The notes beneath the pieces were generated by a model that was not told the DNA's origin, did no database searches, and saw only the letters and a program-made list of their open reading frames with translations. Positions 21,170 to 29,633 of a stretch of DNA of 33,070 nucleotides are shown here, one piece after another. The number at the start of each line of letters is the position of its first letter. Within the stretch, counting starts at the first letter, position 1. The stretch comes from a virus. Location: the UHGV virus genome UHGV-1834275; one strand, given 5' to 3'. The position numbers and the translations under genes were made by a program.

Positions 21170-23098
21170 TTATTTAAAGAATCCTCCACCACGTCTAGAC
21201 GGACGTACTACACGACCTGTTTTTACTGGTGCTGGTTCTTCTTTATTTACTTCTTTATTTAGTCCTTTCTCTTTTTGTTTGGCGTTGAATTCGCGTAGTT
21301 TGCGGAATGGCTGATTACCTAATTTAGATAGATACCAGTGGAAACATATTAAAGCGTAGTTAAGACAATCAAGCGTTTCATTCCTTGCTGAACTAATTTT
21401 CTTAACCCATACCCACGCCCCAGCTTTAATAACTCTCTTCTCACTTGATACCTGAATAAAGTAATCATCTGGTACTGAATGGCTGAAGTGTATTTGTACT
21501 TCACTACTATTACCACTATCCGATACTGCACGGTTTAATAGTTGTCTAATATTACTTTTCCCTAAGTTTACGTTTAGGTTTATTAGACTATGACCACCAG
21601 CCGTAGAGCCTTTAAAGAGTGGGTTAGTATTTGAAGTACCGCCCTTGATTGGTTTAAAGATTGTCGATGCACTACAATAGCGATATACCGTACTGGTTGC
21701 GTTACCGTTCGAACTATCTACAAAACCTGCAAGTACTTTAAGTGGTTTACCGGATACGGTTTTAAAGTTAGTTTGTGAAAATGCTGTTAGCTTATTCCAT
21801 GCGGGAGCCTCTATTTTAGTACAGTCAATGCTATGAATACTGCGATGATCGAGTACATAAAGATTCTTTTCACTTATTCCTAACGTTGTTACTTCAAGGC
21901 GGTCTAACTGTTGGTCTACACCTAGTACGATTCCTTGACAGTCATCCGGCACGGTATCTATATCTATTGAACTATCACGTAGGTTTTCAAGTAATACTAA
22001 ATCATGATCGGTATTCTCTTTATCAATATAAGGAAGTCCTAAGACGTTATTGTAGAATGAGGCTAGATCAAATGTATAATGTGCTTCGGCAAAATCCTGT
22101 ACTATTGATTTGATCGAGTTAATCGGGGAGTATAAACGGCTAATATGATACCCCATGATATCCGTTACTTCTGGTACTGTAGCTATCCATTCACCCTTAC
22201 GTACCATTCTTACACGTTCGGCTTCTGTGATTACATTATTACACTTAGGACATTGTAGTTTTGCTGTCTCTGCATCTGGAATGCGACGACGACCACCATC
22301 AATAATTTTCCAGTCGAATTTAACATTTTCAAATACTAATTCATGTGCATGATCACAATGTGGGCAAGGTACGTAGAACTTCTGTTTATTACTTTGCTCG
22401 TACTGCTGAGTGATTAAATCATTCTCATCAAGTGGTGTAGAACAAACCATAATAAGAGGGTTGCTAAAAGCCTTTGTACGCTGTTCTGCTAGCTTTAGTG
22501 GGTTCCCTTCATCACCATCTGCATCTACGTTAGATATTTCGTCAAGAAAGATACGGGGGGCTGTCAAGCCTCGCAAATTCGCACTACTACCCAATGTTAG
22601 GAAGTACGTAAAAGTACCGTCTAAGTTTTGTTGTGTCTTATCATTATTAGTATAGTTTTTATCATTCTTATTACTGACTAGATTTTTAAGTACTGCACAT
22701 GCTTCGATTACTGATTGCCATTTACCAGTACGAAACTTACTAGTAGTGCTGGCTGTTGCACCTGCGAAAATTAGATTGCTTGGATCATTTGCGAGGAAGT
22801 AGTACATACTATTCTGTAAAACTGTTGTTTTGAGAAGTTGTGCACTGCTCATCAAAACTATTTTTCTAATTCTTGGATTAGTAATGTCATTTATGGGCTT
22901 GTGCTGAAAGGAAAATAACTTTACGCGTTGTCCTTGTAGTTCCCCATCCGGGAATACTAAATTATTCTCTACCCATTCCGCTGGTAGTTGTCGCTTCGGA
23001 GGTAGGATCGACTTCGCCGCCCTCGTTAGTACCTTCATCATCTTCTGGTAGTTGTTCATCCGTGTATGTTCCTTCATATTCATAGCTACCAATTTCAT
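21170..23098 (-). CDS. Terminase large subunit, lambda GpA family
   Basis: LPAEWVENNLVFPDGELQGQRVKLFSFQ...SAQLLKTT parallels the lambda gpA N-terminus (TAVEWADANYYLP...FQ...SAR); C4 zinc-ribbon CPHCDHAHEL...CPKCNNV as in gpA (CPHCGEE...); C-terminal NETLDCLNYAL resembles gpA NEALDCFVYAL. The true start is probably an internal Met, since the ORF overlaps the small-subunit gene by up to 137 nt. Confidence 0.9.
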   Translation of the reverse strand: MKLVAMNMKEHTRMNNYQKMMKVLTRAAKSILPPKRQLPAEWVENNLVFPDGELQGQRVKLFSFQHKPINDITNPRIRKIVLMSSAQLLKTTVLQNSMYYFLANDPSNLIFAGATASTTSKFRTGKWQSVIEACAVLKNLVSNKNDKNYTNNDKTQQNLDGTFTYFLTLGSSANLRGLTAPRIFLDEISNVDADGDEGNPLKLAEQRTKAFSNPLIMVCSTPLDENDLITQQYEQSNKQKFYVPCPHCDHAHELVFENVKFDWKIIDGGRRRIPDAETAKLQCPKCNNVITEAERVRMVRKGEWIATVPEVTDIMGYHISRLYSPINSIKSIVQDFAEAHYTFDLASFYNNVLGLPYIDKENTDHDLVLLENLRDSSIDIDTVPDDCQGIVLGVDQQLDRLEVTTLGISEKNLYVLDHRSIHSIDCTKIEAPAWNKLTAFSQTNFKTVSGKPLKVLAGFVDSSNGNATSTVYRYCSASTIFKPIKGGTSNTNPLFKGSTAGGHSLINLNVNLGKSNIRQLLNRAVSDSGNSSEVQIHFSHSVPDDYFIQVSSEKRVIKAGAWVWVKKISSARNETLDCLNYALICFHWYLSKLGNQPFRKLREFNAKQKEKGLNKEVNKEEPAPVKTGRVVRPSRRGGGFFK

Positions 23099-23534
23099 TT
23101 AATTGATCATCTATTTTTTCCTGTAGTTTGATTTTTAATTCTAATGCGTCTGCTGATTCGAATAATTCAACATAACTTGACGCGGGAATACTTCTTAATA
23201 CTTGGCGTAGTTGGTAGAAGTATTGGGATAAAGTTTGCTGTACTACTGCTACTGGTATTAGCTCGCCGGATTGCTGACGTAATTCCATTTCTTTAATATC
23301 AGCTTCTGCTTCTAACTTACGTAGTGTTGCTTTTTGTATTTGGCCTTTTGTATCACCGCTTCTTAGTGGTTCGATTACGTTTGCAAGTAACCAATCGTCA
23401 ACTAATTTCTTAGGCCAGGTGATATCTAAACCTTTACCAGACCATATACGGCTAACAGTAGAATGCTCTACGCCGAAACGATCCGCGATTTCTTGCCACG
23501 TGTAGCGGGTTCCATCGTCTTTAATTTTTGCCAT
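22962..23534 (-). CDS. Terminase small subunit, Nu1-like (start placed at internal ATG 23534)
   Basis: N-terminal helix-turn-helix (WQEIADRFGVEHSTVSRIW), then Trp-containing and coiled-coil region (LVDDWLLANV...EAEADIKEMELRQQ) as in lambda Nu1; acidic C-terminus; AAGGA about 10 nt upstream of ATG 23534. Located immediately upstream of the GpA-like gene. Confidence 0.7.
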   Translation of the reverse strand: MAKIKDDGTRYTWQEIADRFGVEHSTVSRIWSGKGLDITWPKKLVDDWLLANVIEPLRSGDTKGQIQKATLRKLEAEADIKEMELRQQSGELIPVAVVQQTLSQYFYQLRQVLRSIPASSYVELFESADALELKIKLQEKIDDQLNEIGSYEYEGTYTDEQLPEDDEGTNEGGEVDPTSEATTTSGMGRE

Positions 23535-23763
23535 TTTGTTTAGTCCTTGTTTAGTACAATAAACCTGTACTTTCCTTTTATTTCGTTTTGTTTGTTTTCG
23601 ATTAGAAATCCCACGAATTTTAAATACAATTCGCGGCGAAAACTCGATTTTTTTGTTCTCAATTAGAGAACCTAAAGTTAAAACTTCACTCACGATTTTA
23701 ATTTTTGATTTGTAATAATATTTATATTATCATTGTATTATAAAGTAACAACAAGGACATGTA

Positions 23764-27303: not shown

Positions 27304-28002
27304 ATGACTACTCTCACTAGAACTTATAATTTACCAAATGAGCTAGTTGAACATTTTTCAAATAACATTGTCTATTTCGAAAAACTTTTGTCTAAGGATT
27401 TTTCTGACTTAAATGTTAATGTAGCACCAGAAGACATTAAGAAAATAGAAAAATCTTTCGAAGTATCACATAGAATACGTGATTTCGAAATCAATCTGTA
27501 TTGGCAAAGACTGAACTTCCTTTGGGCCATTACAGCATTGCTATTTGCTGGATGGGGAACATTGATCTTTAAAATCATCGAATTCAATGGAGGGGAAGCA
27601 CCTTATATTATATTTGCCGCCTTATCATTTCTCTCACTTATAGGTGGGATTGTAACTATATTCACAAGCTTTATCATTGAGGCAGGTAAGCATTGGCAAA
27701 AGGTTTGGGAGTTTCATGTTCACGCTCTTGAACCTTTTGTATCAGGTCATTTATATGCAATTCAGTTTTCTTATAAAAATAAAAAAAAGGCATCTATAAG
27801 TAGAAGCGTAGAAACTTTCAATTATGCTTTGCTGTTTCTTTGGGCATGTTCAGCAGTATTCGCCGCAATCATCCCTTCACAAATAGGGAACGGTCTTGCA
27901 GGCATTATCCAATTAGTTATTTCTCTTCTTATAGTTGGTGCTTTTGTTTATATACGCAACTCTGTTACTAAAAAGGAGTCTATTAAAATTCAGCTTGATT
28001 AA
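27304..28002 (+). CDS. Integral membrane protein (about 4 TM helices) with ~65-residue soluble N-terminus
   Basis: AAGGAAAG ribosome-binding site; hydrophobic segments LNFLWAITALLFAGWGTLIF, YIIFAALSFLSLIGGIVTIFTSFII, FNYALLFLWACSAVFAAII, LAGIIQLVISLLIVGAFVYI; 45 nt downstream of the 2TM gene, same strand; followed by a terminator. Confidence 0.6.
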   Translation: MTTLTRTYNLPNELVEHFSNNIVYFEKLLSKDFSDLNVNVAPEDIKKIEKSFEVSHRIRDFEINLYWQRLNFLWAITALLFAGWGTLIFKIIEFNGGEAPYIIFAALSFLSLIGGIVTIFTSFIIEAGKHWQKVWEFHVHALEPFVSGHLYAIQFSYKNKKKASISRSVETFNYALLFLWACSAVFAAIIPSQIGNGLAGIIQLVISLLIVGAFVYIRNSVTKKESIKIQLD

Positions 28003-28022: not shown

Positions 28023-28232
28023 TTAAGCAGCCCCATAATGGGGCTTTCTTTTTTTAGCATTTACTTTTTGAATGCTCATAAGAATCTCACGTACCTTTGC
28101 TTCATTATCACCTGCATCATATAGTACCCCATCTTTCCAGTACTGACCCAGTAGTTCTACTTTTGGTAAGCCCGGCATTGCCCTTACTCCATCTTCGTGA
28201 TCAATATGTAATTCAAGTGATCCAATAATCAT
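28023..28232 (-). CDS. Small hypothetical protein (questionable)
   Basis: ORF only; its last ~10 codons are encoded by the plus-strand terminator hairpin and T-run. Confidence 0.3.
   Translation of the reverse strand: MIIGSLELHIDHEDGVRAMPGLPKVELLGQYWKDGVLYDAGDNEAKVREILMSIQKVNAKKRKPHYGAA
28029..28055 (+). terminator. Rho-independent terminator of the 26548..28002 membrane-protein operon
   Basis: AGCCCCA (28029..28035) / TGGGGCT (28039..28045) stem, 3-nt loop, then TTCTTTTTTT. Confidence 0.6.
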
Positions 28233-28429
28233 TGCACGAAAGTTGTTAGGGTTAATTGAAAGTATTCTGCATCGTCTGGTTGTAGTTCAGCGTAATATTC
28301 TGGTGTGCTATCAAATGTAATTTCATTATTGATCATTACGCCCTGTGTATTTACTGCATATCTACGTTGTTTCATTCGGTCAAATAATAGTATTCCTTTC
28401 ACGCGGTGATATGTTGTTAGTTCCCTCAT
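28229..28429 (-). CDS. Small hypothetical protein
   Basis: ORF with 4-nt overlaps to both neighbours (operon-like). Confidence 0.4.
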   Translation of the reverse strand: MRELTTYHRVKGILLFDRMKQRRYAVNTQGVMINNEITFDSTPEYYAELQPDDAEYFQLTLTTFVQ

Positions 28430-28689
28430 TTGGTTAGTCCTTGGTAGTAAGCCTTAGTAGCTCTGATATTGAATTCTTTGTTTAGGTGTGTATATGATGG
28501 CATATGCCCGTTATCCGTCATGTATCGCTCTATGTAGGCCGTAAGTAGTTCTAACTTGGTTGGGCTTACATCTGGTGTATCACTCAATAGAGAGCGTTTA
28601 GGGGCGTTATAGAGGCCATCACTTCGACCGCCTTGATTCTTGATATTGTGGCGTAGTGTATTCCACTTACCGGGCTTTTGTTTTGGCAT
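28426..28689 (-). CDS. Small basic hypothetical protein (start at ATG 28689 rather than track start 28755)
   Basis: AGGAG about 9 nt upstream of ATG 28689; translation begins MPKQKPGKWNTLRHNIKNQGGR; first gene downstream of the repeat-rich control region. Confidence 0.45.
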   Translation of the reverse strand: MPKQKPGKWNTLRHNIKNQGGRSDGLYNAPKRSLLSDTPDVSPTKLELLTAYIERYMTDNGHMPSYTHLNKEFNIRATKAYYQGLTK

Positions 28690-28755
28690 AGTATTGTACT
28701 CCTGTACTGGTTGATTAATTGGGGCGGCGACTCGTTCACACCTGCGGCGGTTCAC

Positions 28756-29156
28756 TGCGTGGCGACTTCAAGAGACTTTGAATAACTGACTTTCAGTAGT
28801 ATCTCTTGAGTACTTACACCTACTGGAGTGAGCGAAAGCGAGAAAAGCACGCTTGCGGGTTTTCGATGCGATAGCGAGAAAAACGCAATGTGATACCCTT
28901 ATGTGTTTTTTATAGGGATAATAGATAAGACGCTTTAGCGGATTAGCTATTATCCCTCTGAATAATAGATATGGCGTATTTTATATCTGTTTTTCATCTT
29001 TCCATTAGAAAGTAGGATAATTATAATAGGTTGGAAAGATGCCATTTTGCCCCCCATTTTAACGGTAGAATGCGGGTTTCAGGGGTGTTGTTGGCCATAT
29101 TTTCACACCATCTTTCCATCAAAGGGATTCCCACGCTAAACAGTTGGAAAGATGAT
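28756..29156. promoter_or_regulatory. Repeat-rich non-coding control region (candidate operators / iterons / attachment-type site)
   Basis: Four copies of TTGGAAAGATG or its complement in alternating orientation (28995..29004, 29032..29041, 29109..29118, 29145..29154), forming two inverted pairs with 26-27 bp spacers; perfect 10-bp inverted repeat GGGATAATAG / CTATTATCCC (28915..28924, 28947..28956); direct repeats of AGCGAGAAAA and ATAATAGATA. Confidence 0.5.
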
Positions 29157-29633
29157 TTATAGTGAATTTATGTATACCTTGATACTTCCTAAGCTAGTTC
29201 CATCCCTCATCATCTGGTGTACTTTCTTTTTTTCGTGCTGTGTTAGCTGTCGTGCATCACCCTTTAGTGCATACTTGATCATTACGCCGTGATTGTATGC
29301 CTCTAATAGTTCGTGTGCGGCCTTTACTGCAATGTTTCTATAATTATATAGCATTGACTTGTTTAGCGGCTTCTCGTTCCATTTCATGCGATTCTGGCGG
29401 CGAGTATTCACGGTATGTTGTACTTCCTCTATTCCAATCATAGGACACTCTAAAACCAGCTTTAGGATCTCTAACCTACTAACCTTAGTACGGCTAGTGG
29501 TTCCTTCAAACTCTTTAGTAATGACTTCATCAATAATATCTATTGCTTCTGGTGTAAACTGATTCAAAAACTTATAACCTGATAAAACGTTGTGTAAGTC
29601 TGTATTGTCGTATAATTTCTTTTTTCCTGCCAT
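29157..29633 (-). CDS. Hypothetical protein, possible regulator (start placed at ATG 29633)
   Basis: AAAGG about 10 nt upstream of ATG 29633; C-terminal ARQLTQHEKKKVHQMMRDGTSLGSI could be a helix-turn-helix; no firm family assignment. Confidence 0.45.
   Translation of the reverse strand: MAGKKKLYDNTDLHNVLSGYKFLNQFTPEAIDIIDEVITKEFEGTTSRTKVSRLEILKLVLECPMIGIEEVQHTVNTRRQNRMKWNEKPLNKSMLYNYRNIAVKAAHELLEAYNHGVMIKYALKGDARQLTQHEKKKVHQMMRDGTSLGSIKVYINSL

Follow-up and report, generated by a model that had tools for sequence, protein, structure and literature searches.

The stretch of DNA analysed here, called the window below, is the 33,070-nucleotide virus genome UHGV-1834275. It was found to be 98.6% identical to a stretch of the Pseudocitrobacter faecalis DSM 27453 chromosome, and Pseudocitrobacter faecalis was the sole genome returned by a scan of species-representative genomes. 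In DSM 27453 the start of the integrase gene directly adjoins a host radical-SAM gene, and the element is therefore an integrated enterobacterial prophage, which carries a serine integrase and a lambda-type terminase. Nearly all of its genes lie on the minus strand, and this is taken as the gene direction. Read in that direction, the gene for the large serine recombinase (33070-31172, minus strand; Resolvase, Recombinase and Zn-ribbon domains) is followed by genes for a small membrane protein, an RHH-like protein of 51 amino acids (aa), a 73-aa protein, a NUMOD4/HNH endonuclease and an orphan protein of 158 aa (29157..29633, minus strand), the proposed binder of the motif described below. A non-coding gap then separates this gene from the next one on the same strand. 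The first-pass annotation had correctly recognised the gap as non-coding and had put it at 400 bp; its extent is 467 bp (28690-29156), as the ATG at 28689, with its AGGAG ribosome-binding site, is a likelier start codon than the GTG at 28755. Beyond the gap lie three small genes, plus-strand cargo that includes an 8xMP membrane protein, and a second HNH endonuclease, and then the genes for the small and large terminase proteins (TerS and TerL), the portal, a protease-capsid fusion, tail proteins and lysis proteins.

The gap contains four exact copies of a 10-mer core, TGGAAAGATG, within 160 bp. An exact 11-mer, TTGGAAAGATG, is found twice on the plus strand, at 29031-29041 and 29144-29154, and the opposite-strand copies, which read ATGGAAAGATG, are at 28995-29005 and 29109-29119. 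The copies make up two inverted pairs, one with arms at 28995-29004 and 29032-29041, 27 nt apart, and one with arms at 29109-29118 and 29145-29154, 26 nt apart, and so were recovered exactly where the first-pass annotation had described them. With one mismatch or none allowed, the window has 9 matches to TGGAAAGATG where 2.16 are expected, and none of 100 shuffles reached 9. In the gene direction the array begins with site M1 (CATCTTTCCA; 29145..29154, minus strand), the left arm of pair 1, which lies 3 nt past the stop codon of the 158-aa gene. The right arm of pair 1 (TGGAAAGATG; 29109..29118, minus strand) is 26 nt from M1. A between-pair segment of 67 nt (29042..29108), bounded by the mutually inverted inner arms (repeat I6), comes next, and its content differs among lineages. 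Site M2, the left arm of pair 2 (29032..29041, minus strand), is situated 6 nt upstream of a gene-direction TATAAT, and the right arm of this pair (28995..29004, minus strand) is 27 nt from M2. A fifth exact copy of TGGAAAGATG was seen at 28130-28139 on the minus strand, inside a 69-aa gene (28023-28232) 0.9 kb downstream of the array. At the nucleotide level, the phage collection contained no match to the region.

Loci were fetched for eleven lineages of the family, whose hosts are Pseudocitrobacter, Enterobacter, Citrobacter, Salmonella and E. coli; individual loci are given L numbers. Most lineages share a common layout. The serine recombinase gene adjoins host DNA, usually an RHH gene and one or two small genes lie between it and the homologue of the 158-aa protein, and a non-coding gap of 400-800 bp and variable genes follow; lineages with more sequence have a gpNu1/gpA terminase several kb further on. 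A motif search in related phages, proposed in the first-pass annotation, bore the array out: the pairs are kept at the same positions and their copies change together. Both inverted pairs are in place in 8/8 lineages with a 49-99% identical homologue (the window, L002, L008, L142, L141, L010, L011 and L003). In all eight the first arm lies 1-3 nt past the stop codon of the homologue, and the spacer is 26 nt throughout in pair 1 and 26-28 nt in pair 2. In the Salmonella lineage L003, the array of which has a fifth motif copy, GTTTTTCCA stands in place of CATCTTTCCA in every one of the four or five copies, with matching changes on the complementary arms, which is as expected for sites read by one protein. 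The E. coli lineage L145, whose homologue is 23% identical (pairwise E 6e-6), carries at least six copies of another 10-mer, (C/T)ATTAGCCC(A/C), across the same stretch, and the last of these precedes a TATAAT by 6 nt, just as M2 does in the window. L148 and L150, the homologues of which are 28% and 24% identical, have the motif AATTAGGG[CT]AAC. Here just two direct copies were found, 141 and 122 nt apart respectively and without an inverted partner, one at the stop codon and the other beside a TATAAT-like stretch. Identity of the copies within a genome together with their wholesale replacement between lineages is the pattern expected for a single, lineage-specific reading protein, and, judged by such comparative criteria, the TGGAAAGATG copies are real and functional. 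M1 and M2 are the elements common to the lineages and are probably ancestral, and the inverted partners are an elaboration in some of them.

The first-pass annotation had named two proteins for binding tests, the 158-aa protein and the RHH protein. By lineage comparison the former tracks the motif and the latter does not. The 158-aa protein is always present, is always encoded adjacent to the sites and diverges in step with the motif: lineages with a homologue of at least 49% identity retain the window motif, and those at 23-28% have another in its place. Co-variation of the sites with a protein encoded nearby, as looked for in an operator array, is thus seen with the 158-aa protein. The RHH protein was disfavoured on two counts: L011 shares the window motif but has no RHH gene in the interval from the integrase to the 155-aa gene, and the L145 RHH protein is 46% identical to that of the window, compared with 40-49% in the same-motif lineages. 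TerS was rejected as the binder since L145 has a different motif but an 88% identical TerS, in which the winged-helix segment is the same. L141 has the window motif with an integrase only about 25% identical, and the 87-aa protein encoded first after the gap (28426..28689, minus strand), which is not kept in all relatives, has no match in L010 or L011; both were discarded.

The 158-aa family is very small. A word-indexed search gave 9 clusters, and HMMER, applied to the full set of 1.84 billion representative proteins, gave 19 members at E <= 0.001. No match was found for the 158-aa, 87-aa, 73-aa or 139-aa protein in Pfam, PHROGs or NCBIfam, nor for the 158-aa protein in phage records, and a search with the family profile against PDB sequences gave noise only. 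The AlphaFold2 model of the protein is all-helical (mean predicted local distance difference test score 81) and has no significant neighbour in the PDB; a helix pair at its C-terminus (residues 132-157) and its basic N-terminus are the parts that may contact the arms. Draft contigs of two lineages start at the 5' end of the 158-aa gene, at codon 5 in Salmonella (L003, L138-L140) and at the start codon in L002/L006, which suggests a repeat or variable element just upstream of this gene.

Promoter-like elements coincide with the array. The pair-2 spacer holds an AT-rich, near-palindromic core, TAATTATAAT (29019..29027), which presents TATAAT on both strands. On the plus strand this hexamer is part of a sigma-70-like match, TTTCCA-17-TATAAT (28999..29027; 10/12, a consensus match only), the -35 hexamer of which lies inside one arm of pair 2 and the predicted start inside the other. 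On the minus strand the TATAAT past M2 has no good -35 before it. Transcription starts are predicted near 29034 and 29078 on the plus strand and near 29012 on the minus strand. In most of the 11 lineages the 40-mer of the gap that is richest in AT begins at M2 or beside it, some 100 AT-rich bp come after it, and a motif copy adjoining a TATAAT-like hexamer was also read by eye in L010, L011, L145 and L150. On such consensus matches, then, the sites overlap or flank core promoter elements, as operators do. Between the pairs lies a 22-mer, AACGGTAGAATGCGGGTTTCAG (29061..29082, plus strand), with a -10-like hexamer TAGAAT; it faces the 3' end of the 158-aa gene, to which it is antisense. The 22-mer is kept in the window, L002, L008 and L142, with only the third base of its TAnAAT hexamer varying among relatives (G, A or T). 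In L003 it is reversed and points toward the downstream genes, and in L010 and L141 it is absent, the slot being occupied by other DNA. Together with 13 further nt it is about 31/34 identical between the window and L003 (about 506-553), in opposite orientation to the flanking genes.

Our tentative preference, to which we give slightly less than an even chance, is that the TGGAAAGATG copies are double-stranded DNA sites for a prophage-encoded protein, most likely the 158-aa orphan, and that the array switches between early and late transcription. Of the three readings offered in the first-pass annotation (operators for a dimeric repressor, origin iterons, or a serine-integrase attachment-type site), that of protein-binding sites near promoters is the one favoured, as the copies are conserved in position and change in concert and one arm coincides with the -35-like hexamer of the 10/12 match. 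The 158-aa gene and its sites are inherited together as one cassette, with M1 at the stop codon and M2 about 92-141 bp downstream, beside the AT-rich TATAAT core; in the window lineage each has an inverted partner 26-28 bp away. We infer that the 158-aa protein binds these sites. Once bound, it would lie over the -35-like hexamer of the plus-strand match in pair 2 and over the start predicted for this match, and also over the stretch immediately upstream of the minus-strand TATAAT; the four sites also bracket the -10-like 22-mer between the pairs. If the putative promoters fire, the bound protein could occlude the plus-strand one, could replace the missing -35 of the minus-strand one, or both, so that its effect may be repression or activation. 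The array would then serve as a transcription switch between a short early operon, from the integrase to the 158-aa gene, and a long leader before the cargo, terminase and structural genes.

Several observations weigh against such a switch. The promoter-like matches in the region number 3 against 4.1 expected from shuffles and are not above chance. Distant homologues of the 158-aa protein occur in the early region of T7-like phages and beside baseplate or lysis genes, without a long gap, and because of these other contexts the family may not bind DNA at all. The match between protein and motif divergence comes from about five independent lineage groups, and for a dimeric regulator a centre-to-centre distance of 36-37 bp between half-sites is unusual. 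A further point touches the choice between DNA and RNA: in L010 and L141 an A-to-G change in a left arm keeps a G-U pair in RNA of the gene direction, although a protein site is equally compatible with it.

This change leads to an alternative that we consider unlikely, namely that the arms act as RNA and form hairpins, or alternative pairings of the left (L) and right (R) arms (L1:R1, R1:L2, L2:R2), in a read-through or leader transcript. In a variant of it, a short RNA starting from the 22-mer would act like the antisense or leader-RNA immunity of P4, P1 and lambda OOP, and one of the pairs does follow the 22-mer in both of its orientations. Every left arm is complementary to every right arm, the stem lengthens to 12 bp in L010 and L141, and the folding z-scores of the stems are -2.5 to -3.0; L003 is changed on both arms at three pair-1 positions, which is equally expected for a symmetric protein site. 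However, L148 and L150 have direct copies only at the same positions, so that a hairpin, being confined to the lineages with inverted partners, cannot be the function that all of them have in common. Pair 2 has three changes confined to one arm and uncompensated, the 10-bp stems with their unstructured 26-27-nt loops reach only -11 to -17 kcal/mol, and the minimum-energy fold of L003 leaves the pair-2 arms unused. The fixed 26-nt spacer suits the geometry of a protein better than a loop. The short loop and U-tract of an intrinsic terminator are not seen at the pairs: in most lineages no U-tract terminator follows them, and the terminator scan was empty there. No curated RNA family was matched either, as a tRNA scan and Rfam, run with the gathering threshold and again with a permissive E-value, gave no match in the gap. 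The origin reading, in which the 158-aa protein would be the initiator, the copies its iterons and the AT-rich stretch past pair 2 the unwinding element, appears to us rather improbable, a shade more so than the RNA reading. The AT-rich stretch is there, the 158-aa gene and the sites are adjacent and co-inherited, and neither a replication gene nor a cI/Cro-type repressor was recognised among the genes of the approximately 32-kb prophage. On the other hand, where an iteron array would have at least three phased direct repeats, an AT-rich element and DnaA or IHF sites, the copies here alternate in orientation or, in some lineages, number only two, 122-141 bp apart, and scans with the DnaA-box and IHF consensus gave nothing conserved. 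The 158-aa protein is small and without an initiator-like fold, and its homologues are single early genes in T7-like and other lytic phages. The suggestion of origin iterons finds little support.

The orientation of the 22-mer raises an invertible promoter switch, in which the 67-nt segment would be flipped at the arms by site-specific recombination and so directed toward the early or the late genes. The inner arms (29032-41 and 29109-18) form a perfect 10-bp inverted repeat around the 22-mer, as the flanks of an inverton would; the 22-mer block of L003 lies in the opposite orientation to that of the window; L010 and L141 have different DNA in the same slot; and two Salmonella draft contigs (L139, L140) stop inside the segment. 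We nevertheless regard inversion as quite improbable. No near-identical pair of genomes with opposite orientations was found, and all three Salmonella contigs have a single orientation. At 67 bp the segment is very short for synapsis, the flanks of the 22-mer within it are not simple reverse complements between lineages, and an ancient single inversion accounts equally well for the difference. Still less probable, with only a very small chance, is that the copies are small-terminase sites of a lambda-type cos, comparable to R3-I1-R2 of cosB. The homology of TerL and TerS to lambda gpA and gpNu1 speaks for it, as does the likeness of pair 2 to R3-I1-R2, with inverted TTTCC-type sites around an AT-rich spacer, and a GC island that carries 10 nt of the lambda cohesive end lies 262 bp from the nearest copy. 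But the motif does not track TerS, being completely different in L145 in spite of the 88% identical TerS with its identical winged-helix segment; no IHF consensus is present; and TerS, starting at 23534, is 5 kb away, past a variable cargo region. With neither co-variation with TerS nor adjacency to cosN and TerS, the motif was set aside as a cosB. The proposed serine-integrase attachment-type site (attP), finally, is refuted and in our estimate has next to no chance of being right. Large-serine-recombinase attP sites, which are imperfect dyads of about 40-50 bp on either side of a central crossover dinucleotide and are symmetric in the inner recombinase-domain part too, are comparable in size to the 46-47 bp of the pairs, and the 10-bp inverted outer arms would fit as well. 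Yet the integrase start adjoins the host radical-SAM gene (L007, L011) or msyB (L010), and the comparison with the prophage junctions recommended in the first-pass annotation showed no motif at the integrase-host junction of the integrated element. Both pairs are intact in all lineages, 4 kb inside the prophage, and are not split into attL and attR; the inner 26-27 nt of the spacers lack symmetry; and the integrase is about 25% identical in the same-motif L141.

Returning to binding sites for the 158-aa protein, the array is best filed as a cognate protein-site regulatory cassette, a variation, as far as can be judged from comparison of sequences, on the familiar phage operator or switch region. 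In phage P2 and W-phi, the operator half-sites of the C repressors flank promoter elements. The present array resembles these in that a small phage-specific protein would act on sites at least 2-3 helical turns apart that flank a core promoter and have a lineage-specific sequence. It differs in that the partners here are mostly inverted and 36-37 bp from centre to centre, that there are two units about 113 bp apart, and that the 158-aa protein, the binding of which is predicted only, is unrelated and has a predicted fold without a known neighbour. The sites of phi29 p4, of the form CTTTTT-15 bp-AAAATG, are in the region of its early/late switch. The array has in common with them that the inverted half-sites are several and widely spaced, that the protein is a small phage one and that the location is between or over early and late promoters, although the spacing here is 26-28 nt instead of 15 bp, the host group is another and no similarity in sequence or predicted structure was detected. 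The binding element of lambda Q is in the PR' promoter. As with lambda Q, the last gene of the early operon is directly upstream of the late control region, the untranslated leader is long, and M2 is placed just upstream of a -10 hexamer without a good -35; unlike in lambda, no solved Q protein was among the PDB matches, no terminator was found in the leader, and the extra copies and inverted partners are without counterpart.

The orphan gene together with its sites defines a portable cassette at the control point of an undescribed family of prophages with a serine integrase and a lambda-type terminase. If the 158-aa protein binds the sites, it would represent a new DNA-binding fold acting on half-sites of an unusual 36-37-bp geometry. 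The natural variants CATCTTTCCA, GTTTTTCCA, the ATTAGCCC type and the AATTAGGG type would provide ready-made specificity swaps, and the host strain DSM 27453 is held in a public culture collection. The analysis also offers a candidate position for cos and a promoter-like 22-mer that recurs far outside the prophage family.

The 22-mer pattern, AACGGTAnAATGCGGnTTnCAG, gave at least 120 exact matches in metagenome contigs (loci L013-L137) and 4 in viral contigs from elsewhere than the prophage family. Among the matches listed, some 93 loci are of one kind, a unit resembling a miniature inverted-repeat transposable element (MITE), with 1-3 tandem copies of the 22-mer at a 44-nt period and flanks TCCGGACAGTTTT and AAAACTGTCCGGA that form an inverted repeat. 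One contig with this unit encodes WD40, TIR and CHAT proteins, which are typical of filamentous cyanobacteria, the apparent source of these high-copy MITE-like repeats. The identical 22-mer was also found in at least 4 other, unrelated loci (L021, L059, L096 and L124), and it recurs in control regions of several unrelated phages and mobile elements; in L096 an RHH gene follows it at about 40 nt, and a palindrome lies in between. No protein family common to the unrelated 22-mer loci was found, and a literature search with the 22-mer and the MITE end sequences returned nothing relevant. The 22-mer element is possibly mobile or horizontally spread. A speculative combination, for which we see only a slim chance, is that the between-pair slot is a tiny orientation-switchable promoter cassette built on the recurrent AACGGTAGAATGCGGGTTTCAG and gated or flipped through the four sites of the 158-aa protein. 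If true, it would be a new kind of lysis/lysogeny or early/late switch. Such a cassette would share with fimS, hin and the Bacteroides invertons, which are invertible promoters, a promoter-like element in short inverted repeats, the occurrence of both orientations among relatives and a recombinase gene. It would differ from them in that its segment is only 67 bp, that the difference in orientation is seen between lineages only, and that the recombinase is the large serine integrase at the end of the element.

Two further inverted repeats lie between pair 2 and the downstream half of the gap. Directly after pair 2 comes IR-A (28962..28990), an AT-rich imperfect inverted repeat with 13-bp arms in L010. 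It is followed by IR3 (28914..28957), AGGGATAATAG-22 nt-CTATTATCCCT, the perfect inverted repeat to which the first-pass annotation had given 10-bp arms; the arms are in fact 11 bp long (28914-28924 and 28947-28957). In L010 both arms of IR3 are altered (AGGGGTAATAG and CTATTACCCCT), and in L008 and L141 one arm only. The short direct repeats mentioned with it are likewise present, as ATAATAGATAAGACG and ATAATAGATATGGCG at 28918 and 28962 and as GCGAAAGCGAGAAAA and GCGATAGCGAGAAAA at 28832 and 28868. The latter belong to module F (28807..28891, minus strand; TTGCGTTTTTCTCGCTATCGC...CCCGCAAGCG...CTCGCTTTCGCTCA), which is better conserved than any other block of the gap. Its nucleotide identity is 82% in E. 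coli L145, a lineage in which TerS is 88% and the 158-aa homologue 23% identical, and CTCGCTTTCGCTCA is kept in L148 and L150 also. Repeats of the words TACTAC and CAAAGT follow (28768..28806, minus strand), and then a GC island (28718..28767) made up of degenerate GAGTCGCC(A/G)C repeats, with 70% GC against about 37% overall, which is the only non-coding GC-rich stretch of the prophage. Positions 28722-28731 of the island read GGGCGGCGAC, identical to the first 10 nt of the lambda cohesive end. The block is 95% identical in E. coli remnants; the E. coli remnant L144, which retains the GC-island module only, adjoins an IS3-family element; in L145 a similar GGGGCGGCGGC was seen on the other strand.

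Module F, the TACTAC/CAAAGT repeats and the GC island are conserved with the terminase rather than with the 158-aa protein. Because of this, and of the GGGCGGCGAC match to lambda, the downstream half of the gap (28700-28900) may be a cos or a late leader, with the GC island as a possible cosN. Two other proposals for this half were dropped. A C-rich Rho-loading tract does not suit the island, since the strand in the gene direction is G-rich in L145, and a lambda-like 11-mer, GCGGGTTTTCG, at 28855-65 is not conserved in relatives and is probably a coincidence. In the public record of Escherichia phage DCP80 (PQ671644.1; L157/L158, 1-45000), TTCGCTTCGCTCA, which is similar to CTCGCTTTCGCTCA, is found twice in a 1.3-kb non-coding stretch directly upstream of a gpA-like terminase. 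This stretch, the first 1.3 kb of the record, has two CATCTGGCATT-10 nt-AATGCCAGATG pairs, separated by 120 nt, and numerous small hairpins of the UUCG/GAAG type, and the TerL of DCP80 is 36% identical to that of the window. In this record a lambda-terminase late module of about 26 kb is joined to T4-like motA, ndd and rIIA. The record looks chimeric, and its start could not be used as a clue to the genome end.

The remaining observations concern the late genes and the ends of the prophage. TerL aligns over its full length with lambda gpA at 23% identity, and the N-terminal winged-helix segment of TerS aligns with gpNu1. The reading frame of TerS (22962-23763) had been listed from a GTG at 23693; its true start is most likely the ATG at 23534, because the gpNu1-like winged helix and a ribosome-binding site point there. 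The 229-bp stretch upstream of TerS has GTTTTCG and CGAAAAC inverted repeats. Homology to the relative L006 ends exactly at the TerS start codon, which marks the 5 kb between TerS and the gap as a variable cargo slot. In the window the 8xMP membrane protein gene (27304-28002, plus strand) occupies the cargo position, at which relatives have a GTPase, a DUF3800 protein or others. The interval from integrase to terminase in the window holds only small orphan genes, the two HNH endonucleases and the plus-strand cargo. At the far end, past the lysis genes, a transposase fragment (phrog_157) at 8-310 is probably outside the prophage or marks decay of its end. A single 616-aa frame at 17368-19218 matches both phrog_617 and phrog_4523 (major head protein and head protease), which suggests a fused protease-capsid gene.

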